From Nitrospinales bacterium (GTDB lineage Bacteria > Nitrospinota > Nitrospinia > Nitrospinales > VA-1): DNA of 64,000 nt. The translations under genes were made by a program, and so were the position numbers. Of the stretch, positions 15,318-51,567 are shown one piece after another. The stretch covers positions 2,436,030-2,500,029 of the forward strand of contig CBDCXL010000002.1 in the NCBI GenBank assembly GCA_965223795.1, given 5' to 3'. Each line of letters starts with the position of its first letter. The first letter of the stretch is position 1. The notes beneath the pieces were generated by a model. That model did not search any database. It saw only the letters and a list, made by a program, of their open reading frames with translations, and was not told the DNA's origin.

Positions 15318-15429
15318 GCGTGCGTCCTCGTGCCCCGATGCGATTGTGCCATCGGGCAGCAAAGCGGTCATGATACCATTCCCGGCGGGCTTAAAGAAAT
15401 CCCTTGTGCCGAAACCGGCTGCGAGAGGA

Positions 15430-16659
15430 TTAGGGGGCGTTCTGCGGAAGGGAAGCGCCTTCTCCGGTGAAGTTGTAGGCGAAACAGCCGCTGGAACAGC
15501 GCACCATGTAATGCGGGCAGCTTTTACAGGGCTCCTTGGCCTGCGTGTCTTCGAACACGTGGCTCAGAAAGCGGGTGTGCATCTTTTTGATCGAAAGCTC
15601 GTTGACCTGGTCGAAGTCGCGCACGTTGCCCATCTTGAAGTTGTGGAAGGGGAAGCAGTTGAAGCAGTCTCCGTTGGCGTCGATGTCCATCGGGCTGTCG
15701 TCGGCGCAGCCAAAATAGAAATCCTTGTCCTGCCACTCGCGGACATCGGGAACCGACTGGCTGCCGTGATAGAGAAAGCGTTCGACCAGCGGGTACTCGT
15801 CTTCCCGGATCTCATCGAGCAGGCAGGGCGGAAACGAGCAGTCGAAGCGGAAGCTCAACTGCGGGAATTCGTTGAGCAGATCGAGCATCATCCGGCCCAT
15901 TTTGGGGTAGTGACGGATCGGCAGAGCGGTGTTGTCCTGCTCGCCCACGATGGGAAAGGCCGGGCTGACCCGCACTTTGTAGCGCTGTCCCGGCGGCAGG
16001 CCCATGTACTGGTAGATTTCGTCGATCTCACGAACCTGGGTGAACAGGTCCTGCTCGATCGAGTACAGATTGAGGCTGAACATGAGGCTGTAGCCGTTTT
16101 TTTCGATGACCGCCTCGGCCACCTCGCGGCAGCGGGCGTGGTTTTTTTCACTGATGTTTTCCATCGTCTGCCAGTTCAACAGCACAGTGAAGGTGATTTG
16201 TCTTTCCAGCGCGCCTTTCGGATCGACGGTATCCAGCAGCAGGTTGAGCGCGGAGTCGGGCATCAGTCCGTTGGTGAAGATCCCCAGATAGGAGAAGGGC
16301 TGCATGTTGTCGAGGGTGCGGTTCAAAATGTCGGTGAACCGGGGATGCAGGGTCGGTTCGCCGCCCATGAAATTGATCAGCGTGGCGCTGCGGATTCGGG
16401 GCAACAGTTCGCTCGTGAAAAAATCGAATTCCATGGATTTTCCGGGCGTCTTGACGGTCTCTTCCATGTATTCGTCCGCAAAGCAGTAGTTGCACTTCAG
16501 ATTGCAATAGCTGTTGAGAATGATGTTCAAGGCGATCCTCCTTTCAGGAGGCAGGGTGCGCTGTGTCAGGGCCGGGCCCGAAAGGTGCCGGGTTGTAAAT
16601 GCCTGCACCCAGGGGCCGGTTCGAAGGACCGCCGGGAGAAGGAATTCTGTTTCATTCAT
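15430..16659 (-). CDS. radical SAM enzyme with C-terminal SPASM/twitch-like Cys cluster
   Basis: 409 aa. The CxxxCxxC motif is NSYCNLKCNYCFADEY, followed by GGEPTL. C-terminal Cys clusters are GCADDSPMDIDANGDCFNC and CKSCPHYMVRCSSGC. Confidence 0.88.
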   Translation of the reverse strand: MNETEFLLPAVLRTGPWVQAFTTRHLSGPALTQRTLPPERRIALNIILNSYCNLKCNYCFADEYMEETVKTPGKSMEFDFFTSELLPRIRSATLINFMGGEPTLHPRFTDILNRTLDNMQPFSYLGIFTNGLMPDSALNLLLDTVDPKGALERQITFTVLLNWQTMENISEKNHARCREVAEAVIEKNGYSLMFSLNLYSIEQDLFTQVREIDEIYQYMGLPPGQRYKVRVSPAFPIVGEQDNTALPIRHYPKMGRMMLDLLNEFPQLSFRFDCSFPPCLLDEIREDEYPLVERFLYHGSQSVPDVREWQDKDFYFGCADDSPMDIDANGDCFNCFPFHNFKMGNVRDFDQVNELSIKKMHTRFLSHVFEDTQAKEPCKSCPHYMVRCSSGCFAYNFTGEGASLPQNAP

Positions 16660-16865
16660 TTTATAAGACTATTCCGGCGGAATGGATGTTTTTTCTTACA
16701 AACCGCCGGATTCCCACCGCTTTCGGAATGAGGAACCGTTCCGCATGCCGGCATTTCCGGGTTGCGCGGGATCTTGACTTGCGGCAGGAATTTCAATAAC
16801 CTTATGAATACCGCTTTACATCCCCGAGCCGGTCGGCAAGGATCGTATCCATCAACGAGGCCATC

Positions 16866-37913: not shown

Positions 37914-38537
37914 TCACGGTGCGTTGAGCAGGGCGACGATGGCCGCTTCGGTTTCCTTGTAGCGGCCTTCGCCGAAATGGGTGAAGCGCACCACGCCGTC
38001 TTTGTCGATCAGGTACTTCGCCGGCCAGTAACGGTTGCGGTAGGCCCGCCACAGTTTGAAGCCGTTGTCCATCGCGATCGGGTACTGCAGTTCGTAATCC
38101 TTCACCGCCTTGACGACGTTTTTGGGAATGCGCTCGAACTTGAACTCGGGCGCGTGCACGCCGATGACCACCAGCCCCTTGTCGGCGTATTTTTTATGCC
38201 ATTTTTTCACGTAGGGCAGGGTGTTGATGCAGTTGATGCAGGAATAGGTCCAGAAGTCGATCAGCACGACCTTGCCGCGCAGTTTCTGCATGGACTCGAT
38301 GGGTTGGGTGTTCAGCCAGTTGGTGAGCCCGCGGAACTCGGGCGCTTCGTACAGGGTGGGCAGCTTCGCCTCGCCCGAAACGTTTGCCGGCGTCACGGAA
38401 AACACCACCGCCAGAATCACCGCCGCCAGCAGGCCGCATTGCAGGACAGGGGTCTTCTCCTGCAATGTTGACAGCAGACCGTTTTGTTTCCCGATCGGTT
38501 TGACGGCGCGTTGCGTTCGATTCCCGGGGCTGTGCAT
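37914..38537 (-). CDS. membrane-anchored thioredoxin-fold thiol:disulfide oxidoreductase (TlpA/DipZ C-terminal-domain-like)
   Basis: 207 aa with one N-terminal helix. It reads GKVVLIDFWTYSCINCINTLPYVKKWHKKYADKGLVVIGVHAPEF, where CINC is the CxxC motif. Confidence 0.85.
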   Translation of the reverse strand: MHSPGNRTQRAVKPIGKQNGLLSTLQEKTPVLQCGLLAAVILAVVFSVTPANVSGEAKLPTLYEAPEFRGLTNWLNTQPIESMQKLRGKVVLIDFWTYSCINCINTLPYVKKWHKKYADKGLVVIGVHAPEFKFERIPKNVVKAVKDYELQYPIAMDNGFKLWRAYRNRYWPAKYLIDKDGVVRFTHFGEGRYKETEAAIVALLNAP

Positions 38538-38935: not shown

Positions 38936-39868
38936 ATGAAAACGCAAATAAAATCGGCGTATCTTGCAAGCGAGGGGTTTGAGGCGGCGCTGGTCCAGGA
39001 GCTTTCCGGCGGGGTGACGGTGCACGGGCGGCTGGTGCTCTCGGACCGCGCGGCGCAGCCGGTCTGCTGGGCGCAGAATGTGTGGCTGAATCCGGAAACG
39101 ATCGCCATCGACTCGATCTCCGACGCGGCGAAAAAGCTGAAGGCGCGGCAGCGCAACTGGTGCCTGTATTCGTATCAACTGCACCGGCGCGCGGCGCTGA
39201 TCGAAGAAAAACTGCCGCACGTTTCGGGAAAGGCGCTGCATTTTCCCGCGCCGCTGCCCGCCTCGCCGCTCGGGTCCTGGACGCTGCTGGACGCGGACAC
39301 GCTGCTGGCGGCGGGCGAGTGCTCCAGCCTGTTTCCCAACGGCGCGCTGCGTTTTGCCGAGGACAAGGATGGGCCGCCCAATCGGGCGTATCTAAAACTG
39401 TGGGAAGCGTGGACGCTGCTTCAGCGCCATCCGGAGCCGGGCGCTTTCTGCATCGACGCGGGCGCGAGCCCCGGCGGCTGGACCTGGGCCGCGGCGAAGC
39501 TGGGCGCGAACGTGCTGAGCGTGGACCGCGCGCCGCTGGATGCATCGCTATCCGGTCTCGACAACGTGACGTTTCGCAAGGGGGACGCGTTTGCGCTCAA
39601 GCCTGAGGATTTTTCCGGCCGGAACGTGGACTGGCTGTTGTGCGATGTGGTGTGCTACCCGGACAAGCTGTGGCAGTGGCTTGAGGCCTGGATCGCATCG
39701 GGGCTGTGCCGCAGCGTCGTGTGCACGATCAAGTTTCAGGGCGAAGGCGAATACGGGATCGTTGAGCGGTTTCAAAGTGTGCCGGGCAGCCGGGTGGTGC
39801 ATCTTTTTCACAACCGGCACGAACTGACGTTTCTGCTGCAGGAAGAGGGAATCACCCGTCCAGGGTGA
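38936..39868 (+). CDS. rlmM: RlmM-like 23S rRNA 2'-O-ribose (C2498) methyltransferase
   Basis: 310 aa. It reads PNRAYLKLWEAW, has the SAM motif CIDAGASPGGWT, then SVDRAPL and WLLCDVVCYPDK...VCTIKFQG, collinear with E. coli RlmM as I remember it. Confidence 0.78.
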   Translation: MKTQIKSAYLASEGFEAALVQELSGGVTVHGRLVLSDRAAQPVCWAQNVWLNPETIAIDSISDAAKKLKARQRNWCLYSYQLHRRAALIEEKLPHVSGKALHFPAPLPASPLGSWTLLDADTLLAAGECSSLFPNGALRFAEDKDGPPNRAYLKLWEAWTLLQRHPEPGAFCIDAGASPGGWTWAAAKLGANVLSVDRAPLDASLSGLDNVTFRKGDAFALKPEDFSGRNVDWLLCDVVCYPDKLWQWLEAWIASGLCRSVVCTIKFQGEGEYGIVERFQSVPGSRVVHLFHNRHELTFLLQEEGITRPG

Positions 39869-41126
39869 GGTCGGTCTTGGGCACGGAGATGCAGGTCAGG
39901 CAGGAGCGCGCTTCCGGCTTGCTGCCCGGTTCGACGACGTAGCTCACCAGGCCGCGCTTGATCGCGGTGAGGCAGGTGCCGCAGTTGCCGGCGCGGCAGC
40001 CGGACTCGAGCTGGATGCCGTTCTCCTCGGCGAAGGCGAGGATGGAGCCGGCGGCGGGGTTCCACTGCAGGGTTTTCTGGGAGCGGGCGAAGGTGACCTT
40101 GAGCGACGATTCGGTCGCGGGGTCGCCAGCTGTCAGTTTCTTGATGGTGACGGAGTTGAACGCTTCGTAGTGAATGTTTTTCTCGGACACCCCCCACTGC
40201 TCCAGATCCTGGCGCAGGGTCTCGATCATTTTCGGCGGCGCGCAGATGTAAAAGTCGAAATTGTTCGAGGGCAGCACCTCTTTCAACAGGCTGCCGGAAA
40301 TATGGCCTTCGTGATGGTAATCCTTCCCTTTCGCATCCTCGGCGCGCGGCCGGCTGTAACAGACGTTCAATTTTACATTGGGGTGGTTGCGGGCCACGTT
40401 TTCCAGGTGCTCTTTCATCATGTGCTCGGAACGGTTGCGCACTCCGAGAAAAAACCAGGTCTCTCTTTTGGACACGGCGCCGCGGGCGTCTTTTTCCGTG
40501 ATGGTGTTGAGCATGCTGAGCACCGGCGTGATGCCGACGCCGCCGCCGATGAGCACCACGGGACTGGTGCTGGCCATGTCGAGGTAGAAATGACCGCTGG
40601 GTGCCTTGACGTCGACGATGTCGCGTTCGTTGAGCATGTCGTGAAAGAAATTGGAGCCGAGCCCCGGCGGCGCGCTGTTGTTTTCGGGCGGCAGCAGGCG
40701 CTTGATGGTGACGCGGTAGTAATCCGGGTGGTTGGGGCTGTCCGACAGGGAATAGCAGCGGATCACCGGCTTCGGGTTGCCGGGAATGTTGAGTTTGAAG
40801 GTCAGGTACTGGCCGGGCTGAAACGGCGGCAGCGGTTTGCCGTCGTGCGGCGACAGGTAGAACGAGGAAACCTGATCGGTTTCCTTGACCTTGAGCACGA
40901 TCTGGAATTTGCGGAATCCGTTCCAGATCACGTTTTCGCTGCGCGAGTCCATGCGGATCCTGTCGACGATCTGGTCCACACGGGCGCGCAGCAGATCCGC
41001 TTCCAGTTCGCTGCTCCGCCGGGAAATTTTAAAGAAACGGAAATTGTTGCTGATCAGCTGGATGAGGTAGGCCATGAGGGCCAGAAGAAACGCGATAGCC
41101 GCAAGACTGATTGCAGCGTTGAGCAA
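39852..41126 (-). CDS. membrane-anchored FNR-like oxidoreductase (FAD-binding FR-type + NAD(P)-binding + C-terminal plant-type 2Fe-2S ferredoxin)
   Basis: 424 aa with an N-terminal helix (AISLAAIAFLLALMAYLI). It has RCYSLSD (RxYS FAD motif), LIGGGVGITPVLSML, and the C-terminal CRAGNCGTC...CLTC. It converges on rlmM with a 17-nt overlap. Confidence 0.9.
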   Translation of the reverse strand: MLNAAISLAAIAFLLALMAYLIQLISNNFRFFKISRRSSELEADLLRARVDQIVDRIRMDSRSENVIWNGFRKFQIVLKVKETDQVSSFYLSPHDGKPLPPFQPGQYLTFKLNIPGNPKPVIRCYSLSDSPNHPDYYRVTIKRLLPPENNSAPPGLGSNFFHDMLNERDIVDVKAPSGHFYLDMASTSPVVLIGGGVGITPVLSMLNTITEKDARGAVSKRETWFFLGVRNRSEHMMKEHLENVARNHPNVKLNVCYSRPRAEDAKGKDYHHEGHISGSLLKEVLPSNNFDFYICAPPKMIETLRQDLEQWGVSEKNIHYEAFNSVTIKKLTAGDPATESSLKVTFARSQKTLQWNPAAGSILAFAEENGIQLESGCRAGNCGTCLTAIKRGLVSYVVEPGSKPEARSCLTCISVPKTDLTLDG

Positions 41127-41205: not shown

Positions 41206-41733
41206 CTACGGGTCGTTGCGGGCCAGCAGCATTTCTTTTTTGAAGCCCGGTTTGTGGTGGTAAACGTGACACAGCTGACAGTCTTCTCTCACTTTTCCTT
41301 CCGAATGACATTCGAGGCAGGTTTTGCGTGTGATGGCGGAGAAGTTGCTTTTGAACACGGCCGGGTCGAACGAATCGAACGCGCCGAGGAAATCGGCCTT
41401 GGGATCGAGGACGTGGCAGTTCTTGCAGGTGTCGCCTTTGCCGAGCAGGTCGAGGTGGTTTTTATGGGAATATTTCAGGTAGGCGCGGTTGCGCGCGCCC
41501 TTGTAGCCCCAGTCGATGGTGAGCTGGCCGGGGTTTTCCGCGTCCGGTATGGCGGAAACCGCATGGCACTTGATGCAGCCGCCCACGCCTTCCTTTGAAG
41601 AGAGCATCAGGTCGCGCATCGCCTCGGCGCGTTCGCGCTTGTCGGGATCGGTCTCGGTGGCGGCGACGGTGAGCGCGAACTCGATCCAGCTTTGCGCCAC
41701 CGGGTCCTCATGGCCGGAGGGGGTGTAGCGCAC
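41206..41733 (-). CDS. multihaem cytochrome c, C-terminal part (4 CxxCH) of a frameshift-interrupted decahaem gene
   Basis: It contains CIKCH, CKNCH, CLECH and CQLCH. In this frame the reading frame stays open upstream to 41786 and reads SPAEASFGGWHADLLEVRYTPSG, joining the upstream ORF at the C5 run (plus-strand G-run 41776-41780). Confidence 0.85.
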   Translation of the reverse strand: MRYTPSGHEDPVAQSWIEFALTVAATETDPDKRERAEAMRDLMLSSKEGVGGCIKCHAVSAIPDAENPGQLTIDWGYKGARNRAYLKYSHKNHLDLLGKGDTCKNCHVLDPKADFLGAFDSFDPAVFKSNFSAITRKTCLECHSEGKVREDCQLCHVYHHKPGFKKEMLLARNDP

Positions 41734-43094
41734 TTCCAGAAGGTCCGCGTGCCAGCCGCCGAAACTGGCTTCCGCGGGGGATCGTATTCGACGTTGAGCC
41801 CCCAGGCGCAGGCCGCGCGTTTGAGTACTTCCGGGTTCAATCCCGCGAGCATTTTCTCGGCCACGGGTACGGGAGAATGCTCGTTGATCAGATCCGCGAT
41901 CGGCATCGTGCTTTCGACGGCGAGGTTGAGGATGAGGTCCTGCAGGCTTTCGCTGTAGCTTTCCGGATCGTCCTCGGGCACGTTCAAAAGATAGGCGCTG
42001 ATCAGGCTCGGCGATTCGGTGGAGATGCTGACGAATTCATCATCCTCTTCCTCAATCTTTTCGCCCCGGGTCCGCGGTAACCGGCAGGCTTCCTTCAGCT
42101 CTTCAACATCGATGCGGTTTCTGTCCAGTTCGGGCAGGCGCATGAGGACCAGCTCCTTGCGCGGAATCTGAAATTCGTGGCAGGAGGCGCAGACCCCTTC
42201 GAATTTGTCCGGGCTGACGATCTGCTCTTCCTGGGTCACTTTGTGGCAGACCATGCAGTCCTTGGGCGAGCGGTCTTCGAATTTGGGATCGACAAAGTAT
42301 TTATTCCAGTGCGAGATGTGGTCGAACTTGATCGTGTTCTTGCGGGTGTGCGGGTAGTTCTCCGGAAATTCCGGGTGCCCTTCGGTGAAGCTTTTGAACT
42401 GCTCTTCGTGACAGTGGTTGCACTGGGTGTTGTTGAAGGTGCGGATGGCCAGCCCGGGGCCGCGGTGCTCGCGGTGGCACATCAGGCAGTCGGTTTTCTG
42501 CAGCCGGGGAAACTGTCCGCGGTCGCCGTTGTGGGCGACGAGGGCCGGGCCGCCGAACAGGTGGCAGTCTTCGCATTTGGCGGAGATGTTGCCGGTGTGC
42601 AGCACCGATTTCAGCCACAGCACGGACTTGAGATTGTGGGTGGCGTGGCAGATTTCGCAGCCTTTGTTCTCGGCGAATTTGACGTGCGCGCTCGACATCG
42701 GGCCGGGATTGAAGCTCACGTGCCGGTGCTGCGCCTGGTCCACCACCCAGGAAAGGCAGAGCAAGGACACGATGGTGCCGAATGCGAGCAGGATCAGCCG
42801 GGCCCGGTAGACGCGCAGCGTGGCTTTGGGGACGCAGGGCGGGTGCCGCTGGGAGCACATCCCCTGGGGCAGCGGACCGTCGCCGCAGGGCCCGCCCGCC
42901 GCCTGGGGGCGGCTGCATTCCCAGTGGTTGCCTTTCAGCGTCGGCGCGCATTCGGCGGTGCCGCCGCAGGCGCCGTCGATGTCGGGGCCCTGATGGCAGG
43001 GTTTGAGCCAGAGCGCACCGCGGCCGCAGCGGTAGGGGAAATTCGGCCGTTCGTACTTGCTGCGGTTGTGCGCGAATTTTTTCTCATCCATCAT
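41607..43094 (-). CDS. multihaem cytochrome c, N-terminal part (6 CxxCH) with a Cys-rich cytoplasmic N-terminus and one TM helix; interrupted by a frameshift
   Basis: It contains CEICH, CEDCH, CLMCH, CNHCH, CMVCH and CASCH. The ATG at 43094 overlaps the upstream stop (ATGA). The last roughly 60 residues of the ORF (RKPVSAAGTRTFWKCATPPPAMRTRW...) look out of frame. Confidence 0.85.
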   Translation of the reverse strand: MMDEKKFAHNRSKYERPNFPYRCGRGALWLKPCHQGPDIDGACGGTAECAPTLKGNHWECSRPQAAGGPCGDGPLPQGMCSQRHPPCVPKATLRVYRARLILLAFGTIVSLLCLSWVVDQAQHRHVSFNPGPMSSAHVKFAENKGCEICHATHNLKSVLWLKSVLHTGNISAKCEDCHLFGGPALVAHNGDRGQFPRLQKTDCLMCHREHRGPGLAIRTFNNTQCNHCHEEQFKSFTEGHPEFPENYPHTRKNTIKFDHISHWNKYFVDPKFEDRSPKDCMVCHKVTQEEQIVSPDKFEGVCASCHEFQIPRKELVLMRLPELDRNRIDVEELKEACRLPRTRGEKIEEEDDEFVSISTESPSLISAYLLNVPEDDPESYSESLQDLILNLAVESTMPIADLINEHSPVPVAEKMLAGLNPEVLKRAACAWGLNVEYDPPRKPVSAAGTRTFWKCATPPPAMRTRWRKAGSSSRSPSPPPRPIPTSANAPRRCAT

Positions 43095-43894
43095 AACAGG
43101 TAGACGTGCACCACGACCATGTGCCACAGGATCACGGTCATGAGGGCGGTGGCCAGCGGAATGTGGATCATCAGCCAGCTTTTCAAAACCGTCTGCAGCG
43201 CGTAGTGCAGATCGATCTTGCGCTTAGTATCGGCCAGCGTGAACAGTTTTCTCAGGTAGCCGCGTTCCTGCACGTTGAGAAATTTTTCCAGGGTGGAAAA
43301 CTGCTGCCGCACCCAGAATTCGCCCTTGTGGCCGCCGAACAGGTAGCTGGTGAAAAACCGCGGCCGCTGGAAAAACCAGTGCAGCGATTCCAGGTAATGG
43401 GTCGCCAGGGTGTCGCGCCCGGTCTCGTGGGTGCAGGCGAGCAGTAGGTCCTTGGCCTTTTTACGCAGCTCGCTGATTTCCGCCGGGATGCGTTCGTAGA
43501 TGCACTCGAAGCCGCTCTGGGTCAGGCGGCTCGGGTAGATTTTCTGGATCAGGGTGCCGACGATGCCGGAGAGGGCGGAGGCGTAGAACAAGAACGCCAG
43601 GATCTGTTCGTACAATCCGTCGGGCCACAGCGTGCCGATGTGCAGCCAGAAAATGCCGATCGCCAGGAAGCCGCCCACGGTGTGGATGTTCAGCCAGTTC
43701 GAGGACGGCGAGAGCGGTAAAAACGGCAGCCGCTTGCGCAGATGAAACAGGGCCAGCACGATCAGGATGGAGAACAGGGTCCAGCCGGTGAGCGGCGAGG
43801 TGAACTCAAGCTGCTCATCCGCCTGGCTGGTGCGGTAGGTCATGAACACCAGAAATACGCTTGCGAAGATCCACAGGGCCCAGGATTTCACCAT
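43091..43894 (-). CDS. integral membrane protein with two His-x13-His helices (putative dihaem b-type electron-transfer subunit)
   Basis: ATG at 43894 (MVKSWALW...), AGGA upstream, 267 aa, about 5 TM helices. His71/His85 lie in NIHTVGGFLAIGIFWLHI and His244/His258 in MIHIPLATALMTVILWHM. Confidence 0.75.
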   Translation of the reverse strand: MVKSWALWIFASVFLVFMTYRTSQADEQLEFTSPLTGWTLFSILIVLALFHLRKRLPFLPLSPSSNWLNIHTVGGFLAIGIFWLHIGTLWPDGLYEQILAFLFYASALSGIVGTLIQKIYPSRLTQSGFECIYERIPAEISELRKKAKDLLLACTHETGRDTLATHYLESLHWFFQRPRFFTSYLFGGHKGEFWVRQQFSTLEKFLNVQERGYLRKLFTLADTKRKIDLHYALQTVLKSWLMIHIPLATALMTVILWHMVVVHVYLL

Positions 43895-43902
43895 CGAATG
43901 TC

Positions 43903-45618
43903 CTATCGGTCTATGCTTCCCTCGGGCCGCACGTGACGGAAATCGACCCGCTGCAGAGCTTCGTGAGAGCAGGCCTGCACGCAGGCGGGACCGGACAGTT
44001 GGCCGACGCAAAGATCGCACTTGGTCGCCTTGAGGATCGGCTTGCGCGTTTCGGCGTCGAGGATGGGTTTGCCTTTCTTGTCATTGATCTCCACCATGCG
44101 AATGTTCGAGTAGGGGCAGGAATTGGCGCAGGTCTCGCATCCGATGCAGGTGTCGTCGTTGATCACCACCGTCCCTTCGGAAAGGGTGCGGTGGATGGCT
44201 CCGGTGGGGCAGCCGATCAGGCAAACGGGATCGACACAATGCATGCAGGCGTTGGCCACCATCCAGCGGCCGAAGGTCTTGCCGTGCCGGATGAACCGGG
44301 GGTTGCCCTCATGCGCCGAGGCGCAGGCGTTGACGCAGTCGTCGCAGCGGACGCAGCGGTCCAGGTTGATCAGCATGGCCTGGGTGCCGTTGATGAACCG
44401 CTCCTGCACGGTCCATTCTACCAGAGCTTCGTCCGCCATGGTCTGTTTAAATAGATCGGTCATGCGCCTGTGGTTGCCGGTGGGCCTGTCGCTTGCGTGG
44501 CGGGTTCCGTGATGGATGGTCTCCCAATAGGGAAAGACGTATTTTTCCAGGATCTTCGCCGGGATCTGCAAAACATCTACGTAACCTAAAGCCGAGATCG
44601 ACACCTTGTAGGAGACATCCTTTTCCCCTTTCCAGGCGAGGTACAACTCATCGGCGCCGTAGAAATTGCCCATCCCCAGGTAGGTGAGGGTGTGGTCGCC
44701 GTCTTCCCGCTTGACCGAAACGCGGGCGAACCCGGCCCTGACCAGCAACAGGTCGTCGGGGTAATCGCCCTGCTTGGCGATCAGCGGCTCGTGCTGGATC
44801 CCCGCTTTGCCCATGTTGCGCAGGTTCTTGTAGGAAACCGTCCAGTCGTAGGTGCCGTAGGATTGGAAGCCGGTGTTCTGCGCCACATCGCGGAGCGCTT
44901 CTTCATCGAGATGCTCGAACAGCGAGATCTTGCGCAGAAAGGAAATGAGCGCGTTCTGGCTGTAGCGCTTTTCGATCATGCGGCGCCAGTTCTCGTCGTG
45001 TTTGCGCAGCTCGCGCAGTCCCTGCCAGCGGATTTCCAGCAGCTCGGAGTAGGTTTCGGAGAAGATCGTCGCGGTGCGCGGAATGCGCCCGAGCGCCGCC
45101 AGCTCGCCGAACAGATCGCCGGTTTCCAGGATCGCGGTCTTGTTGGCGTCGAGCACCGCGGGAATGTCCTGTAAAAACACGTGGCTTTGCGTCACGTCGC
45201 CGTTGGTGTGGATCGCCTGCTGGGTGTAGCGGGACGGGTCGCGCACTTCCGGGATCTTGCGGTTGGTGAACAGCTGCGACAGGGCTTCGAGCACGCTTTT
45301 GCGCGGCGTTTTCTTGCGGCCCAGAAGGTCGCTCGGCAGACCGGGAGACAGCACCACGCGCAGCCGGCCGTTGAGCGCGAGAAACGCGGAGTTGCCGTAG
45401 TCGCCCTCGCGGATCACGATGTCGCCGGGCTTGAATCGGACGATGCGGGTGTCGTTTTTGAGGATCCCCTCGAGCGGCGTGTCCGGCGGAAAGCGGTCCT
45501 TCTCGATCGCGGCGATCTCCGGAACCGCGAGCAGTTTCTGCACGTCGTATTCCGTCATTTCAGGACCGAAGGGGTTGTTCCACCGGTCCGGCTGTGAAAT
45601 TTGCGTGACGACTTCCAC
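43903..45618 (-). CDS. fusion protein: two cyclic-nucleotide-binding domains + four-cluster [4Fe-4S] ferredoxin (NrfC/DmsB/HybA-like)
   Basis: 571 aa with no signal peptide. The cNMP signature is GDLFGELAALGRIPRTATI, and there is a second beta-roll region. The Fe-S motifs are CVRCDDCVNAC, CMHCVDPVCLIGCP, CIGCETCANSCP and CDLCVGQLSGPACVQAC. Confidence 0.9.
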   Translation of the reverse strand: MEVVTQISQPDRWNNPFGPEMTEYDVQKLLAVPEIAAIEKDRFPPDTPLEGILKNDTRIVRFKPGDIVIREGDYGNSAFLALNGRLRVVLSPGLPSDLLGRKKTPRKSVLEALSQLFTNRKIPEVRDPSRYTQQAIHTNGDVTQSHVFLQDIPAVLDANKTAILETGDLFGELAALGRIPRTATIFSETYSELLEIRWQGLRELRKHDENWRRMIEKRYSQNALISFLRKISLFEHLDEEALRDVAQNTGFQSYGTYDWTVSYKNLRNMGKAGIQHEPLIAKQGDYPDDLLLVRAGFARVSVKREDGDHTLTYLGMGNFYGADELYLAWKGEKDVSYKVSISALGYVDVLQIPAKILEKYVFPYWETIHHGTRHASDRPTGNHRRMTDLFKQTMADEALVEWTVQERFINGTQAMLINLDRCVRCDDCVNACASAHEGNPRFIRHGKTFGRWMVANACMHCVDPVCLIGCPTGAIHRTLSEGTVVINDDTCIGCETCANSCPYSNIRMVEINDKKGKPILDAETRKPILKATKCDLCVGQLSGPACVQACSHEALQRVDFRHVRPEGSIDR

Positions 45619-45717: not shown

Positions 45718-46701
45718 TTATTTGTAGTCGTCCTTTTTCGGCAGCAGCTTGCCCACCGCTTTGGACAAATCCTTGCCCTTGATGGCGGCCACCAGCTTGC
45801 GGGCGTTCTGATCGGTCGGTTTGGCGATCAGGGCCTGGGCCTCGGGTATGCCTTTCAGATGCGCCAGGGCGGCCTTGGCGTCCGCCACGCGCTTCTGCTG
45901 GGCCTGCACGTATTTTTCGTTGTCCGAGCGGGTCAGCACCGAGTTGGCCGACACCAGCTTGGCGGCCTGGCCGATGACGAAAAACTCGGCCAGCTCCTGG
46001 GGCGTCATCTCGGCGTTCACCTTCACGTTCGGCTCGTAGTAGCGGTGGCGCACCGTGCCCTGCGAGTACTTGACGATCTCGAAGTCCGGATTGATGGGAT
46101 GATCGGCCTCCAGCATCTTCGCCAGAAGCTCGGGCTTGAGATCGGGATTGGCCAGCCCGTGGCAGAACATGCAGTTGGCGGCGACGTCGTATTTCATGGT
46201 CGGCCAGATGAGACCGGCTTCGGTGGATTTTTTGATGCGCATCGCCTTGTGCTCGGGCGTCTCCTGATCTTTCTCCACATCTTTGCCGCCGTAATTGTCG
46301 TGAATCTCCAGGTAATCGGAGGAGGGCCCGTGGCAGCTTTCGCAGGACGTCCCCGATTTGGCCTTGGGTTTGTCACCGGCATCCTTCTGCACCATGGTGT
46401 AATGGCACAGGGTGCAGGTTTCGTTCTTCTTCATGTTTTTCGACCCGCCCACCGCCTTGAGGATCTTTTTCGGGGAGGGTTTCTTTTTTTCCTTGTTGTC
46501 CTTGGGTTCCCGGTGCGCGTCGCGGAAGGATTCGAAGTGCCGGGTTCCCTTCCAGACTTTGTATTCGGCTTCATGACATTCCGTGCAGACCTTCACCCCT
46601 TTGAAAAAGGGTTTGGCCGAAGCCGAAGACGCAAACAGGCAAACCAGAACAGAAAATAGCGCGATGAAAGAAAGTCGTGATGGACTCTTGATTGATTTCA
46701 T
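45718..46701 (-). CDS. periplasmic tetrahaem cytochrome c
   Basis: 327 aa with signal peptide ...VLVCLFASSASA. It contains CTECH, CTLCH, CESCH and CMFCH. The first motif context, CTECHEAEYKVWKGTRHF, is typical of cytochrome c554/NrfB-like multihaem proteins. Confidence 0.9.
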   Translation of the reverse strand: MKSIKSPSRLSFIALFSVLVCLFASSASAKPFFKGVKVCTECHEAEYKVWKGTRHFESFRDAHREPKDNKEKKKPSPKKILKAVGGSKNMKKNETCTLCHYTMVQKDAGDKPKAKSGTSCESCHGPSSDYLEIHDNYGGKDVEKDQETPEHKAMRIKKSTEAGLIWPTMKYDVAANCMFCHGLANPDLKPELLAKMLEADHPINPDFEIVKYSQGTVRHRYYEPNVKVNAEMTPQELAEFFVIGQAAKLVSANSVLTRSDNEKYVQAQQKRVADAKAALAHLKGIPEAQALIAKPTDQNARKLVAAIKGKDLSKAVGKLLPKKDDYK

Positions 46702-46919
46702 GATTTCAAGCGATTGAATTGAGCGTTTTTGCGAGTTTTGGGATCAGGATCGTCGTTTGCGGGCGGCCGCCGGGATTCCCCTATGTGCTGCCCAAATAGC
46801 GTTTTCGGTCATTCCGTACTCAAAGTTCCTAAAAAACCGCTGAAATGACAAGTGATTTTTCCAGAAATATAAGCAATTTCAGATTCGTATTTGTACTAAT
46901 TTTGACCCCAGACACAAGA

Positions 46920-46934
46920 GCAGAAAAAGTGCCA
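46920..46934 (-). promoter_or_regulatory. sigma-54-type -24/-12 promoter candidate for the minus-strand cytochrome operon
   Basis: The minus strand reads TGGCAC-TTTTT-CTGCT, with GG and GC separated by 10 nt. It lies about 220 nt upstream of the ATG at 46701. Confidence 0.35.
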
Positions 46935-47923
46935 AAAAGTGGGATACCGGCGAAAAAATTTTATTCGTGGTAAATCAATCGTTTTTAAAAGCGAGTTAAA
47001 ATAATTATAGAAAATTTGTTTAAAATCGAATAAATAAGTATCAAACGTTGTCAATGAATACAATGGATAAATGCTCCCATCACAAAGGCGTAAAGCGATT
47101 CCAGCCGAGCCTTTGACCTTTTTAAAACCCGGAAAGTGAAACAAAACCGATGCCAGCATTCTGAGATCCGTCCTGTGTGTGGACGAGCATACGACGGTGT
47201 TGGCTGGGTCGACAGTCACTGTATGAAATTAAAGACAATCCGGAAATGAATTGCTGAATTTGTGCCACGAAGGATGAAGTCCGCTTCGATTCCCTCGGTT
47301 TTCTTGCCGGCAGCAAAGAAAACACAGTTTGTTCTTTAAATTTCAATGGGTGACCCTATTCTAGCATCCTTTTTCCGTGAAACCTATCCCGCTGGTTGTG
47401 TTTTAGGTCACAGTCCGTTATTGCATTGATTCATTTCGATGCCAGCCGGGCTGCGTTCATAAATTTACATCTATGGTTAATTTATATGGGGGTTTGCAAT
47501 ATTGTGCGTTGATTCGGGGATGAAACTCTATATAAACCAATTATTTGATTTGTAGTTATCGAAAATTTGGGTAAATGAGTATAAATTCGTTATCATCGTT
47601 AAAAATGGGATAATTATCACAAAATTAACGGTGGGAATGGTTCCTGGATTGAGCTAGAATCAGAAAAGTTGATAAATAAAAATAAATTGCTACCTTCAGT
47701 GTAATTTTTCATGGCCTTCAAGTTGATGAATTCTAACTTCAACCTGATGGCTGTGGGGGAAATCTATGTTTTTCGTTCGTGAAGTGTGCGGCTATCCGGA
47801 CAGAAAAAATATTGCTAAGATTTTTAGATTTCTGGTTAAAAAAATATAAATATATTGAAGGTTTGGTTGCCAAGAATTGATGGAAAGGTTTGATAAGCCA
47901 CGACTTTAAATTTCAATTGATTC

Positions 47924-47938
47924 TGGCCTGTGTTTTGC
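47924..47938 (+). promoter_or_regulatory. sigma-54-type -24/-12 promoter candidate for the plus-strand cytochrome/porin pair
   Basis: TGGCCT-GTGTT-TTGCT, with GG (47925-47926) and GC (47937-47938) separated by 10 nt. It lies about 115 nt upstream of the ATG at 48055. Confidence 0.3.
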
Positions 47939-48054
47939 TTTGTTTTCATTATGGATACCGGAAACAAGGTAACGGCGGGGACGGGCGTTTCGCCGGTTTT
48001 GCCTTAAGGTCATAAAACAGAATCAAAGGGATGTTTTTTTGGGGAGAAAGAAAC

Positions 48055-50070
48055 ATGACCGGACAGAACAATACGATGCATTGCAGGTCTTTCATTTTTC
48101 GTGTGGCCAGCGCCGTGTGCCTGGCAGCGTTCGCCAGTGTCGCGCTGATTTCCTGTCAGACTCCGCTGATGGAAGCGGATAAGGACAAAATGGCGAACGC
48201 CGCGCTTGCCGATGGCGAAAAGAAGATGGATGGCGGGAAAATGATGGCGGACAAGATGTCCGACGGTGAAAAAATGGCCGAAGGGTCCGCAGACTCCGGA
48301 AAAATGATGGCGAAAAAGGTGATGGCGGACAAGAAAATGATGAAAGGCGAGGGCGATGCCTGGGAGGACAAGAAGGACGGCGGGAAAAAAGCCGAAACGC
48401 TTGAGGATGCGTTCGCGCAGCATGAAGCGCTGTTCGCGGAAAACCGCTATCCTTCCGCGGCCACCTGCCGGACCTGTCACCCGAAACACTATAAGGAATG
48501 GTCGGTGTCTCAGCATTCCTATGCTCAGATCAGTCCGGTCTACCTGTCTCTCAACAACAAGATCAATCAGTTGACCCAGGGCACCATGGGTGATTTCTGT
48601 CTGCGCTGTCACAGCCCGGTGGGCGCCAACCTGGGAGAATCTCCGTATCAGTCGAACCTCACCCGGCACCCGACCTCGCGCGAGGGCATCACCTGCGTGG
48701 TGTGTCACCGGCTGAACTTGGCCTACAACAAGGTCAGCGGCCGGCTGGCGCTGGAAGAGGGCGACCTGCTCACTCCGGTGTTCGGACCGACGGGCAATAA
48801 AGAGCTTTCCCGCGTTCTCGACAACAAGGACAAATACCGGGTGGTCACCAAGAAGGAAGGCAAGGGCCGCAAGATCCACACCCAGGCCAAGCAGTTCGCC
48901 GGCATCACCACGCCGACGTTCTGCGGTTCCTGTCACGACGTGACGCTGTTCAACGGTTTCCGGCTGGAGGAGGCGTTCAGTGAATACCGGCTGTCTCCCG
49001 CGGCCAAGAAGGGCGTGACCTGTCAGGACTGCCACATGGGCAAGATCCAGGGCATCCCCTCCGGTTACGAGCACGGGCCCGCGGCGGTCGTGGGCGGCAA
49101 GAAAACCAAGCCGCGCAAGATCACCAGCCACTTTTTCGCCGGTCCCGACTACTCCGTCGTGCATCCGGGCATTTTCCCGCACAATTCCGACGCCCAGGAA
49201 ATGGCGACGCTGGAAGAGTGGATCCAGTTCGACTGGAAGGCGGGCTGGGGCACCGATGATTTCGAGGACAACGTTTCCGAGGATCACAAATTCCCCGATC
49301 GCTGGCGTTCGGCGACGGACCGTTACGACGCCAGGGAGATCATCGAGTATCAGCTCAAGCGGCTGGAGCTCATCAAGGAAAAACGGATGGAAGTCCTGCG
49401 CAACGGGTTTCATCTCGGCAGCATCATGACCGAGAAAGCCGATAAGGACGGCATCCGCTTCAAAGTTCAGGTGAAAAACGCCACCGACGGCCACAACGTT
49501 CCCACCGGGTTCACCGGCGAACGGCTTGTGTGGCTGCACGTGATGGTGAAAGACAGCGACGGCACCGTGATCTTCCAGTCCGGCGACCTCGATCCCAACG
49601 GCGATCTGCGGGACCAGGAATCCTCCTACGTGCACAACGGCGAGGCCCCGCTGGATCACCAGCTGTTCAATCTGCAATCGCGATTTGTCGTCGATAACCT
49701 CAGGGGCGGCGAGCGCGAGCGCGTCATTCCCATTCCTTACCCCCAGACCGCGATCCCGTTTGTGCGGCCTTCCATTCAGTCTCTCATCCTGAGTGGCGAG
49801 CCGACTACGGAGCGCAACCACCGGAAAGGCATCGAGCCTTTGGGGCATCGCTGGGCCGAGTACAAGATCGACAAGGAAGCTCTCACCGGCAAGGGCCCCT
49901 ACATGGCTCACATCGAGCTCAAAATGGCTATGGTTCCCGCCAACCTGGTGGAAGCGATCCAGGATGTGGGATTTGATTTTCACATGACCCCCAGAGAAGT
50001 GGGCGACGCGGTGGCCGCAGGTCATGCGGTGCTCTGGGAAAGAGAAGTCGAGATCAGCGTGATCGAATAG
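48055..50070 (+). CDS. lipoprotein pentahaem cytochrome c with Met/Lys-rich linker
   Basis: The ATG at 48055 follows GGGGAGAAAG. The signal ends in the lipobox VALISC. It contains CRTCH, CLRCH, CVVCH, CGSCH and CQDCH. The C-terminal roughly 250 aa carry no haem motif (ATDGHNVPTGFTGERLVWLHV...). Confidence 0.9.
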   Translation: MTGQNNTMHCRSFIFRVASAVCLAAFASVALISCQTPLMEADKDKMANAALADGEKKMDGGKMMADKMSDGEKMAEGSADSGKMMAKKVMADKKMMKGEGDAWEDKKDGGKKAETLEDAFAQHEALFAENRYPSAATCRTCHPKHYKEWSVSQHSYAQISPVYLSLNNKINQLTQGTMGDFCLRCHSPVGANLGESPYQSNLTRHPTSREGITCVVCHRLNLAYNKVSGRLALEEGDLLTPVFGPTGNKELSRVLDNKDKYRVVTKKEGKGRKIHTQAKQFAGITTPTFCGSCHDVTLFNGFRLEEAFSEYRLSPAAKKGVTCQDCHMGKIQGIPSGYEHGPAAVVGGKKTKPRKITSHFFAGPDYSVVHPGIFPHNSDAQEMATLEEWIQFDWKAGWGTDDFEDNVSEDHKFPDRWRSATDRYDAREIIEYQLKRLELIKEKRMEVLRNGFHLGSIMTEKADKDGIRFKVQVKNATDGHNVPTGFTGERLVWLHVMVKDSDGTVIFQSGDLDPNGDLRDQESSYVHNGEAPLDHQLFNLQSRFVVDNLRGGERERVIPIPYPQTAIPFVRPSIQSLILSGEPTTERNHRKGIEPLGHRWAEYKIDKEALTGKGPYMAHIELKMAMVPANLVEAIQDVGFDFHMTPREVGDAVAAGHAVLWEREVEISVIE

Positions 50071-50133: not shown

Positions 50134-51567
50134 ATGAGGTACGCCAAGCTGGAACGGGAATTTCTCTCAAAAACGGTTGCGGCGGCGATCCTGTGGCTCA
50201 TGATCGCCGCTCCGCAGGCGGCCCAGGCGGATAGCTGGTTCTCCGCGATCGGTGAAAAATCCGAGGTCAGCCGGCTTTCGGACGAGCAGATTCCGTTCGC
50301 CGGCGTGGAAGGCCTGCCGCCGCGGCCGGGACTGATCTGGGAGTTCGGCGACAATTTCCTCGACTCGGGGAACCTGTACTCCGGCTTCGAGCTGCCCACC
50401 GGAGCGGTGTGGCAGCCGCGCCTCTGGCTGTTCGCCACGCTGCGCAGCGCGGTGCAGACCTTTGACGACGGCGTCAACGACCGCAGCTCGGAATGGGTCA
50501 ACCGGCTGGATCTGTTCGCCAATCTGCAGCTCACCGGCACGGAAAAGCTGGTGTTCGGCATCCGTCCGTTCGACCGCAACCGTCCCGACCGGTTCTCCGG
50601 CTACCAGTTCGAACCCGACAACGACGACGGTTTTCAGGAAGATCTCAACGCGGACATCCGCACCTTCTTTTTCGAGGGCGATCTGGGAAGCCTGTTTCCC
50701 AATCTGGACCGGCACGGGTTCACGGCGCTCGACTACGGCTTTTCGGTGGGGCGCCAGCCGCTGCTGTTTCAGGAAGGCATCCTGATCAACGACACGGTGG
50801 ACGCGCTCGGGCTGGTGCGCAACAACATCCGCCTGCCGGGGGTGTCCAACCTCCGGGTGTCGTTCGTCTGGGGCTGGAACGAGTTGGGGCGCAGCGACGC
50901 GGTTCTGAGGGACACCACGCAGATGTTCGGGCTGTTCAACTCGGCGGACCTGAACGTCAGCACCGTCAACCTCGACATGGCCTATGTGCGCGACACCAAC
51001 CCCAACGGGCAGGACAGCTTCAACATCGGCCTCTCCTCGACCCAGCGCATCGGCCATTTGAACACCACATTCCGCGTCAACAGCTCGATCGCCGAGGACG
51101 GCGACACGCTGGCCGCTGCGGACGGGACGCTTATATCCGCGGAACTCTCCTGGACTCCCGAATCGTCCGACGACATCGTGTACCTGAACACATTTTATAC
51201 CATTGAGAACTACACCCAGGTGGGAAGGGAACCGGTCGTCGGTGGACCGCTGGGAACGCTGGGCATTCTGTTCGCCTCGCCCAGCATCGGCAACTTCCTC
51301 GCCGAACTCAATCCCTTTGCCAATGAAGTTGCCGGCGGCGCGCTCGGCTACCAGGCTTTCTGGGACAACCACAAGCGCAACCTGATTCTGGAAATCGCCG
51401 GACGCCAGGACACGAGCGGTGACAACAACTCTGATTTCGCTGTCGGTTTTCAGGTGCAGCAGCAGATCCATCAGCGCATTCAGCTGCAGCTCGACGGCCA
51501 CTACGCCATTCAGGAAGGCCGCGACAACGGCTACGGCGGACGCACGGAAATCCTGATCCAGTTCTGA
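50134..51567 (+). CDS. outer-membrane beta-barrel protein (porin-like)
   Basis: 477 aa with signal peptide ...LWLMIAAPQAAQA. It has many short amphipathic strands rich in G, Y, F, N and D, and the C-terminal signature GGRTEILIQF ends in Phe. Confidence 0.8.
   Translation: MRYAKLEREFLSKTVAAAILWLMIAAPQAAQADSWFSAIGEKSEVSRLSDEQIPFAGVEGLPPRPGLIWEFGDNFLDSGNLYSGFELPTGAVWQPRLWLFATLRSAVQTFDDGVNDRSSEWVNRLDLFANLQLTGTEKLVFGIRPFDRNRPDRFSGYQFEPDNDDGFQEDLNADIRTFFFEGDLGSLFPNLDRHGFTALDYGFSVGRQPLLFQEGILINDTVDALGLVRNNIRLPGVSNLRVSFVWGWNELGRSDAVLRDTTQMFGLFNSADLNVSTVNLDMAYVRDTNPNGQDSFNIGLSSTQRIGHLNTTFRVNSSIAEDGDTLAAADGTLISAELSWTPESSDDIVYLNTFYTIENYTQVGREPVVGGPLGTLGILFASPSIGNFLAELNPFANEVAGGALGYQAFWDNHKRNLILEIAGRQDTSGDNNSDFAVGFQVQQQIHQRIQLQLDGHYAIQEGRDNGYGGRTEILIQF

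Follow-up and report, generated by a model that had tools for sequence, protein, structure and literature searches.

PtdF of a Nitrospinales bacterium, a predicted dihaem cytochrome b encoded between an Fe-S protein and a decahaem cytochrome c

Introduction

The gene cluster ptdABCDEFG was named in 2023/24 in a preprint on marine Alphaproteobacteria of the group UBA11136 from oxygen-deficient zones (bioRxiv 10.1101/2023.11.21.568154). There, the cluster is described as highly transcribed by abundant Alphaproteobacteria of these zones and as present in nitrite oxidisers. The preprint also calls PtdB a porin, characterizes PtdF in a single phrase as "ferric reductase-like", and gives the function of Ptd as "completely unknown". 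Among the papers searched, none besides the preprint has this name, and public databases leave the Ptd proteins described below unnamed. Here, we analyze the ptdF gene of a Nitrospinales bacterium, which lies in a 64,000-nucleotide stretch of its genome (assembly GCA_965223795.1, contig CBDCXL010000002.1, positions 2,436,030 to 2,500,029) that we call the window and number from its first nucleotide. By the geometry of its His residues, PtdF is almost certainly a bis-His dihaem transmembrane cytochrome b, its haem binding being predicted from the sequence, and we consider it likely that it is the dihaem b wire through which the Ptd system passes electrons from cytoplasmic Fe-S and flavin proteins to the cytochrome PtdG.

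The haems of bc1 cytochrome b are ligated by H83/H97 and H182/H196, and those of NOX2 by H101/H115 and H209/H222, on parallel helices. The ferric reductase domain (FRD) superfamily, to which NOX2 belongs, comprises NOX/DUOX, FRE/FRO, MsrQ/YedZ and STEAP (PF01794). Of the four-cluster ferredoxins NarH, FdnH and HycB, some have dihaem cytochromes b as partners. PtdF shares features with each of these systems and differs from all of them.

Two invariant histidine pairs

The open reading frame (ORF) of ptdF starts with the ATG at 43892-43894 and stops with the TGA at 43091-43093 of the minus strand. The initial annotation of this DNA, made from the letters and the ORFs alone, had pointed to two H-x13-H patterns in its product, and the translation bears this out. 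H71 (codon 43682-43684) and H85 (43640-43642) lie in NIHTVGGFLAIGIFWLHI, which spans residues 69-86, and H244 (43163-43165) and H258 (43121-43123) lie in MIHIPLATALMTVILWHM, residues 242-259; both strings are found in the product. The first pair had been placed in one transmembrane (TM) helix and the second in the last helix, and the AlphaFold2 model agrees, with helices at residues 64-86 and 208-266. Given the composition of the helices, the chance of finding H-x13-H in both of them is ~0.004, and ptdF is the sole ORF with two hydrophobic H-x13-H segments among the 138 six-frame ORFs of at least 150 aa in the window. An ORF at 15094-16731 (+) has one such segment, but it matches no family and overlaps a long antisense ORF and is probably a spurious frame.

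A word-indexed search returned 65 unannotated clusters of PtdF homologs. With an exhaustive profile search the set grew to 2,639 representatives at 50% identity and an E-value (E) <= 1e-3, 444 of them with E <= 1e-30. Conservation of the four His in homologs had been set beforehand as a test of the dihaem assignment. In an alignment of 214 members, whose identity to the query has a median of 33% and a minimum of 26%, H71, H85 and H244 are present in every sequence and H258 in 213. PtdF has seven further His (51, 156, 166, 172, 189, 230 and 263), and these, which serve as an internal control, are not conserved. In the same alignment G110, G113 and W240 are 100% conserved, D228, K224, G37 and W67 ~99%, and G75 96%.

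A motif W-x3-H-x13-H is thus common to TM3 and TM5. The profiles of these two helices align gaplessly, W/H/H on W/H/H, with a score of 16.5 (P = 4e-4), whereas either of them scores only 2.4-10.4 against TM1, TM2 and TM4. Such a likeness suggests an internal repeat or a shared constraint. It also bears on whether PtdF might bind one haem, or one haem and another cofactor, with one His pair being structural. The FRD superfamily does contain one-haem members (STEAP, with one haem and FAD, and earlier models of MsrQ), and the dihaem stoichiometry of PtdF is a prediction. However, the four His are equally invariant, the pairs are symmetric with the same motif on both helices, and one haem cannot bridge the ~30 Å core that separates cytoplasmic Fe-S clusters from periplasmic haems c. 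We therefore find a single haem very unlikely.

Topology and helix packing

The AlphaFold2 model of PtdF was built on 39 homologs and has a predicted local distance difference test score (pLDDT) of 92.5 and a predicted template modelling score of 0.83. It consists of helices 2-27, 33-55, 64-86, 94-126, 133-158, 162-176, 181-185, 190-203 and the long helix 208-266, which amounts to five TM helices, with TM4 and TM5 separated by an insertion (residues 119-238) that adds ~120 aa of soluble helical structure. The last helix is also a hydropathy peak, whereas TM3, being rich in Gly and His, falls slightly under the strict Kyte-Doolittle cut-off.

The family-wide net charge is +1.7 for the N-terminus and +3.5 for loop 2-3, compared with ~0 for loop 1-2 and -0.5 for loop 3-4. 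The N-terminus, the R53-K54 loop and the insertion are accordingly predicted to be cytoplasmic. Since these positive-inside charges give an N-in protein, TM3 and TM5 would both run from inside to outside. In this predicted topology H71 and H244 are 5-7 residues from the cytoplasmic boundary and H85 and H258 are near the periplasmic side. A location of all four His in one leaflet, which had been counted in advance against a dihaem protein, is therefore not what is predicted: the pairs are in register and divided between the leaflets, H71/H244 on the cytoplasmic side and H85/H258 on the periplasmic side. Positive-inside statistics and the helix boundaries of the model agree that the His helices are parallel and their pairs at matching depth.

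Helix packing was examined by mean-field direct coupling analysis (DCA) of 284 sequences, whose effective number is ~236, and the result is hence noisy. Among the top 60 couplings, six pairs connect TM2 with TM5 in a consistent antiparallel register (38/263, 48/248, 50/245), four connect TM3 with TM4, and two each connect TM2 with TM3 and TM4 with TM5. No pair in this noisy set connects TM3 with TM5 or TM2 with TM4, and the former is as expected if haems fill the space between the His helices. The pattern, noisy as it is, is consistent with a four-helix ring 2-3-4-5 in which the His helices are diagonal. The invariant small Gly residues of TM4 (G110 and G113) may allow the cofactors to pack.

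The initial annotation had also described a helical insertion between TM4 and the last helix that it did not recognise. The insertion is indeed helical and has no Pfam, NCBIfam or PDB match, but its size is ~120 aa rather than the roughly 100 aa given then. It contains the conserved motifs E130-x-I-Y-E-R-I-P137 and F-F-Q-R-P-R-F (175-181) as well as K224, D228, Q234 and K238, and in the DCA E130, I132 and E134 co-vary with H230, Q234 and K238 of the helix preceding TM5. It is probably a docking surface for PtdE, for the N-terminal module of PtdG, or for both.

Gene context

The window gene is ptdF of the ptdABCDEFG cluster, an identification that rests on the composition of the cluster and on closely related loci of Rhodospirillales/Alphaproteobacteria metagenome-assembled genomes (MAGs). 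Neither the name of the cluster nor the frameshift in ptdG of this assembly, described below, had been part of the initial annotation. The published seven-gene set is the same as that of the window, and the published haem counts of 5, 4 and 10 are confirmed by the CXXCH motifs of ptdA (5), ptdD (4) and ptdG (6 + 4; Table 1). The gene order agrees too, being ABCDEFG or a rotation of it, but the window itself differs by an inverted ptdAB and a frameshifted ptdG.

We compared 84 loci, of which 42 with a length of at least 14 kb were treated as full-length. The gene for the Fe-S protein with cyclic nucleotide monophosphate (cNMP)-binding-like domains is adjacent to ptdF in 83 of the 84 loci. A large multihaem cytochrome gene is present in 81, the c554-like tetrahaem cytochrome gene in 72, a second multihaem cytochrome gene in 66, an FNR-like gene in 62 and a gene for a barrel-like protein in 61. 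All seven ptd genes are found in 39/42 full loci. The position of ptdF between the Fe-S protein and decahaem cytochrome genes, noted initially for the window, holds there and in all 42 full-length loci, where ptdE-ptdF-ptdG are contiguous. The bc1- or NOX-like dihaem ligand geometry proposed at that stage is hence supported by His conservation, predicted leaflet placement and gene context.

The commonest orders in full loci are DEFGABC (22) and ABDEFGC (11), and one locus (L001) has exactly the order ABCDEFG. Most alphaproteobacterial loci are of the DEFGABC type. An inverted ptdA-ptdB pair divergent from ptdDEFGC is found in the window, in L005 and L006 (order B'A'DEFGC) and apparently in L007, whereas the other Nitrospinota loci compared (L008-L027) are collinear ABDEFGC. 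Altogether, ptd loci occur in at least six phyla, with hosts in Nitrospinota, Alpha- and Gammaproteobacteria, Verrucomicrobiota, Planctomycetota, Burkholderiales and Zixibacteria. No plasmid-borne copy was found in PLSDB.

Complete or near-complete ptd loci are also present in MAGs from Lake Baikal (L044, L067), groundwater (L060, L083) and a river (L063), and likewise in lake MAGs labelled 'DeepCast' or 'Offshore' (L042, L056, L068), and they are found in Verrucomicrobiota and Zixibacteria. The hosts depicted in the preprint are described there as all saline, whereas the MAG loci compared here include freshwater and groundwater ones.

The neighbouring Fe-S, flavin and decahaem proteins

PtdE lacks a recognisable signal sequence and is therefore presumed to be cytoplasmic. 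All 16 Cys of its four ferredoxin-type motifs (Table 1) are invariant in 74/74 orthologs, and over the full length of residues 418-562 PtdE aligns with HycB3, NarH, FdnH and NrfC, all of which are four-cluster proteins. PtdE thus probably holds four [4Fe-4S] clusters and not the two that the preprint assigns to it. The cassette of its second cyclic-nucleotide-binding (CNB) domain reads FGELAALGRxPRTAT across orthologs, with G171 in 74/74, E172 in 72/74, R181 in 74/74 and T/S182 in 70/74 of them; the other two CNB-like stretches have no obvious phosphate-binding cassette. This conservation suggests real cNMP binding, which is unusual for an Fe-S electron-transfer protein.

As this canonical cassette recalls cNMP-gated channels, the four His of PtdF could instead be a binding site or a path for a non-haem metal ion (Fe2+, Zn2+ or Cu+), or part of the wall of a pore under cNMP control, with PtdF importing the product of an extracellular reduction. 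An Fe(II) uptake path would be useful if Ptd reduced Fe(III). However, the His form two layers ~21 Å apart on two helices and have conserved Gly and Trp around them, which fits planar haem sites, and the four invariant [4Fe-4S] motifs of PtdE indicate electron transfer rather than ion transport. The probability of a metal site or pore is in our view next to negligible.

The flavin module of PtdC is closest to flavohaemoglobin reductase (3OZU, E = 1.6e-49), an enzyme that natively reduces haem b. A hydrophobic helix is present at the N-terminus of PtdC in 52/52 orthologs and is followed by positive charges, which therefore point to an N-out/C-in orientation. An N-out helix followed by a flavin domain mirrors TM6 and the dehydrogenase domain of NOX, so that PtdF with five TM helices and PtdC with one may be likened to a NOX that was split after TM5.

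The stop codon of ptdF overlaps the start codon of ptdG in an ATGA (43091-43094), which implies translational coupling of the predicted dihaem b subunit with the decahaem cytochrome. In the window ptdG is distributed over two frames (41607-43127 and 41206-41733), because one nucleotide is missing within 41772-41780 (-), either at a run of five C or after it. At this site the window has GATCCCCC-GCGG, compared with GATCCTCCGGCGG in L005 and GAGCGTCCTGCGG in L006, and in L005 the tblastn matches to the N- and C-terminal parts of ptdG share one reading frame. Either the assembly of this 3.25-Mb contig contains a homopolymer error here, or PtdG is truly cut short after haem 6.

Ahead of its haem domain PtdG has a Cys-rich module with the pattern YERPN..RCGR..PC..GxCGG..C.P..CxR..GGPC..GxC..PPCxPR. 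Most orthologs have eight Cys in it, and L056, L057, L059, L063, L075 and L039 have a short form with four. The module has no Pfam match, and AlphaFold2 was uninformative for it (pLDDT 54.6 with two homologs), only the TM helix being confident. As it is N-terminal to a positively flanked TM anchor, the module is predicted to be cytoplasmic, whereas the preprint calls PtdG 'periplasmic'. It could form an Fe-S or Zn site on the same face of the membrane as PtdE and the inner haem of PtdF.

Relationship to known cytochrome families

We scanned 39 PtdF members for sub-threshold family matches at E <= 10. DUF4405 (PF14358) was matched by 15 of them with a best E of 0.0075; members scanned individually gave 8-14 bits, and all stayed far below the curated threshold of 26.7 bits. 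Ferric_reduct (PF01794) was matched by four members with E = 1.3-7.6 and 7-10 bits, below its curated threshold of 28 bits, which no member reached. The window protein itself has neither match. PepSY_TM and Ni_hydr_CYTB were matched by one member each. These four families belong to the Pfam clan of dihaem transmembrane cytochromes, and the matches land on TM2-TM3 and TM5, the region of the His helices. DUF4405 has been described as a half of cytochrome b561 with two TM helices and two His (PMC5898192), and such a half-cytochrome-b unit fits the internal similarity of TM3 and TM5. The recurrence of DUF4405 matches suggests remote relatedness only. No match to bc1/b6f cytochrome b (PF00033/PF13631) was found in the same scan, and an hhalign comparison of PtdF with single-sequence MsrQ gave a probability of 0.1; the MsrQ homologs listed are enterobacterial, at least 77% identical (almost all at least 84%) and too shallow for a useful profile, and the compared ptd loci contain no homologs of FRD, CybB, NarI or FdnI that could have served for one. 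Judged from sequence, PtdF is at most a very remote relative of these families and fits none of them. The initial annotation had claimed only a geometry like that of bc1 and NOX, and this restraint was apt, as membership could not be shown. Longer homologs that looked like PtdF fusions (P0066, P0125, P0201, P0078) turned out to be assembly duplications or products of mis-called starts.

In the same scan a single member matched Cytochrom_C_asm weakly (E = 0.0033). Together with the three multihaem cytochromes c encoded in the cluster, and the fact that CcsBA and CcmF likewise use two TM His and two periplasmic His, this match could be read as a sign that PtdF is a CcsA/CcmF-like haem-handling or cytochrome c maturation factor for the 19 haems of PtdA, PtdD and PtdG. 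However, the match does not recur, PtdF lacks a WWD motif and has five TM helices only, and its His form two equivalent trans-membrane pairs instead of a TM pair and a periplasmic pair. Invariant synteny and translational coupling with the Fe-S protein and PtdG also speak against such a role, which we regard as extremely unlikely.

Among known architectures, the FRD superfamily is like PtdF in its N-in orientation, which for PtdF is predicted, and in its His pairs on TM3 and TM5; the spacing is H-x13-H twice in PtdF and H-x13-H and H-x12-H in NOX2. In FRD proteins electrons come from an FNR-type FAD/NAD(P)H module, and in Ptd they would come from such a module in a separate protein, PtdC. Unlike the six-TM core of FRD, PtdF has five TM helices and a 120-aa cytoplasmic loop domain between TM4 and TM5; in Ptd the route would also include a four-cluster Fe-S protein and, in addition, a 2Fe-2S domain; and the acceptor would be a multihaem cytochrome c instead of O2, Fe(III) or MsrP. 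We hypothesize that the sixth FRD helix is supplied in trans by PtdC or PtdG. With bc1 and b6f PtdF shares two H-x13-H patterns on two helices, which in PtdF are predicted to be parallel, and conserved Gly on the helices beside them; the diagonal arrangement that these two helices have in the four-helix bundle of cytochrome b is one with which the noisy DCA of PtdF is consistent. In bc1 and b6f the His are on the second and fourth helices, which run from the positive to the negative side relative to an N-in start, whereas in PtdF they are on the third and fifth, predicted to run from negative to positive; PtdF also has no Qo or Qi site and differs in size and partners. Cytochrome b561 (PF01292, CybB) and DUF4405 have no counterpart of the PtdF insertion and partner proteins.

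NarI and FdnI resemble PtdF as predicted here in that a four-cluster ferredoxin-type subunit sits on a dihaem b membrane subunit whose two stacked haems cross the membrane. Their His are arranged differently, with H56/H66 and H187/H205 in NarI and, in FdnI, one each on TM1 and TM2 and two on TM4. They are also coupled to quinones, whereas PtdF has a decahaem cytochrome on the periplasmic side, in place of the quinone pool, as its second partner. CymA, ImcH and CbcL hold the same position as PtdF, in the inner membrane feeding periplasmic and outer-membrane multihaem cytochromes, but they are quinol dehydrogenases (NapC/NirT-type or cytochrome b + c fusions), whereas PtdF is apparently fed by Fe-S and flavin proteins.

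These likenesses raise the question of whether PtdF is a quinone-coupled dihaem cytochrome b, similar to NarI, FdnI or the b domain of CbcL, that connects the (mena)quinone pool with PtdG and has PtdE and PtdC as a second input or as regulators. In the characterised extracellular electron transfer conduits of Gram-negative bacteria a quinol dehydrogenase (for example CymA, ImcH or CbcL) is the entry point, the Fe-S domain of PtdE is of the NarH/FdnH type, whose membrane partners have quinone sites, and a quinone pocket in PtdF is compatible with all our results. However, PtdF has no similarity to NarI, FdnI or CybB beyond a single PF01292 match (E = 4.3) in 1 of the 39 members. In 39 of the 42 full loci the cluster encodes its own membrane-anchored NAD(P)H oxidoreductase, so that quinone input is unnecessary, and in the predicted topology PtdF turns its largest conserved soluble surface to the cytoplasm, toward PtdE. 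Quinone coupling is hence rather improbable.

Other features of the locus

The coordinates of the cluster genes and of their domains are collected in Table 1. PtdB has no Pfam match. After its lipobox (..ALISC), PtdA has a low-complexity linker rich in Met, Lys, Asp and Gly (about residues 45-110; 48163-48360, +), exemplified by DKMANAALADGEKKMDGGKMMADKMSDGEKMAEGSADSGKMMAKKVMADKKMMKGEGD, whose Met-rich stretches resemble Cu(I)-binding or flexible tether regions.

Table 1. Positions in the window of the ptd genes and of the domains of their products
Feature	Position	Strand	Description	Basis
ptdF	43091..43894	-	267 aa, predicted dihaem b-type membrane protein with 5 TM helices	ORF, AlphaFold2, invariant His
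PtdF TM1 + TM2	43730..43891	-	residues 2-55, ending in invariant cytoplasmic R53-K54	
PtdF TM3	43631..43705	-	residues 64-88, W67-x3-H71-x13-H85, conserved G75	
PtdF TM4	43541..43615	-	residues 94-118, invariant G110 and G113	
PtdF insertion	43181..43540	-	residues 119-238, predicted cytoplasmic, all-helical, ~120 aa	AlphaFold2, conservation
PtdF TM5	43097..43180	-	residues 239-266, W240-x3-H244-x13-H258	
ptdC	39852..41126	-	N-terminal TM helix, FAD/NAD(P)H module, C-terminal 2Fe-2S domain	
ptdG	41206..43094	-	decahaem cytochrome c, 6 + 4 CXXCH, split by 1-nt deletion near 41776	
PtdG TM anchor	42744..42806	-	single TM anchor, only confident part of N-terminal model	
PtdG Cys-rich module	42834..43094	-	N-terminal, ~90 aa, 8 Cys	conserved across phyla
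ptdE	43903..45618	-	571 aa, three cNMP-binding-like stretches, C-terminal four-cluster ferredoxin domain	Pfam, NCBIfam
PtdE Fe-S domain	43933..44367	-	16 Cys, four ferredoxin-type motifs: residues 422-432, 458-470, 491-501, 534-550	
PtdE second CNB domain cassette	45067..45111	-	residues 170-184	FGELAALGRIPRTAT
ptdD	45718..46701	-	periplasmic tetrahaem cytochrome, c554-like, signal peptide	PF13435 E = 2e-13; 4 CXXCH; 1BVB cytochrome c554
ptdA	48031..50070	+	pentahaem lipoprotein, Met/Lys/Asp-rich linker	5 CXXCH, lipobox LISC; 5ZE8 cytochrome c552
ptdB	50134..51567	+	probable outer-membrane beta-barrel	signal peptide, C-terminal Phe

The divergent genes ptdD and ptdA are separated by a spacer of 1.3 kb (46702-48030) that is AT-rich amid a GC-rich region. 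Within it, the sequence GATAATTATC (47609-47618) is a perfect palindrome that looked Fur-like. In 127 orthologous upstream regions matches to the Fur and CRP consensus were no better than in shuffled regions, and Rfam had nothing in 46600-48100. Iron regulation of ptd is thus neither supported nor excluded. A different palindrome, TTGA-N6-TCAA (for example TTGAGTTTCGTCAA), is found upstream of ptdD in five Nitrospinota loci (L010, L011, L012, L017 and L020) and is absent from the window, where ptdAB is inverted. It may be a site of the CRP/FNR family or may reflect shared ancestry of close genomes.

A gene about 1.3 kb from ptdC (37914-38537, -) encodes 207 aa of a thioredoxin-like protein that has a membrane anchor and a CxxC motif (WTYSCINCINTLPY). 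From its sequence, this protein could be a thiol-disulfide oxidoreductase of the kind involved in cytochrome c maturation.

Proposed electron path

In the mechanism that we propose, H71 and H244 of PtdF would ligate a haem b on the cytoplasmic side and H85 and H258 a haem b on the periplasmic side. With their irons ~20 Å apart, the two haems would form a two-step wire across the membrane. Electrons would pass from NAD(P)H to FAD and the [2Fe-2S] cluster in PtdC and on to the four [4Fe-4S] clusters of PtdE, possibly gated by a cyclic nucleotide, for which the 120-aa insertion of PtdF would be the docking platform. From there, possibly by way of the Cys-rich N-terminal module of PtdG, they would enter the inner haem b of PtdF, move to the outer haem b and continue through the ten haems c of the membrane-anchored PtdG and the tetrahaem PtdD to the outer membrane, where the pentahaem lipoprotein PtdA would work together with the barrel PtdB.

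Moving electrons outward from one stacked haem to the other would be electrogenic and dissipate the membrane potential, as it does in NOX, and Ptd would therefore more likely be an export, assimilatory or defensive reductase than an energy-conserving respiratory branch. We discarded a reverse flow through PtdF, with nitrite as donor and NAD(P)+ as acceptor, for thermodynamic reasons, as it would work against the membrane potential and has a redox gap of ~750 mV to overcome in addition. On this evidence Ptd looks like a quinone-independent electron exporter.

Several points weigh against this assignment of PtdF. The protein has no significant match in Pfam, NCBIfam, a phmmer search of the PDB or a profile search of the PDB. 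Foldseek of its model against the PDB gave a best E of 1 with TM-scores <= 0.33 and returned no FRD structure, and its hidden Markov model scored ~0 bits against E. coli MsrQ, NarI, FdnI and CybB. The haem in PtdF is itself predicted, and the direction of electron flow, the independence from quinones and the docking of the insertion are all features that we infer. Finally, the Ptd system could be defective in this strain if the ptdG deletion is real. Nevertheless, a dihaem wire accounts better than any of the alternatives discussed above for the symmetry and invariance of the His pairs, for the Fe-S partner and for the synteny.

A more far-reaching possibility, to which we give a rather low probability, is that Ptd is a cyclic-nucleotide-gated, quinone-independent split bacterial NOX, in which PtdF contributes TM1-5 with two haems b and PtdC a TM6-like helix with the FAD/NAD(P)H and 2Fe-2S parts, and which is combined with PtdE as a four-cluster relay and connected by 19 haems c to a barrel in the outer membrane. 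Such a device would spend cytoplasmic NAD(P)H and membrane potential on reducing something outside the cell. Candidate substrates would be particulate Fe(III), reduced in order to acquire iron, O2, reduced to superoxide, or else a nitrogen oxide.

Implications

With the protein analyzed here, the PtdF family, which already had its name, gains a new member from Nitrospinales. The dihaem assignment, the topology, the four-cluster PtdE, the cNMP cassette, the Cys module of PtdG and the split-NOX analogy refine the earlier description. Among these features, the preprint does not report the four invariant motifs and the cassette of PtdE or the module of PtdG, nor does it report the N-out helix of PtdC. 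A one-phrase annotation is thereby turned into residues that can be mutated (H71, H85, H244 and H258 of PtdF, R181 of PtdE and the Cys module of PtdG) and into a testable wiring diagram.

PtdF is the sole Ptd component able to carry electrons across the cytoplasmic membrane and therefore fixes what the whole system can do. If it is a dihaem cytochrome b that NAD(P)H feeds by way of flavin and Fe-S proteins, Ptd would export electrons at the expense of membrane potential and without quinones, unlike the quinol-fed Mtr and Pcc conduits. Reductive iron acquisition, extracellular superoxide production or periplasmic reduction of nitrogen oxides would then be more likely roles than energy-conserving respiration. 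Nitrospinota are the dominant nitrite oxidisers of the ocean. Should Ptd prove to be a split NOX, it would represent a new, quinone-bypassing route of extracellular electron transfer in aerobic and microaerobic marine bacteria, these main oceanic nitrite oxidisers included.

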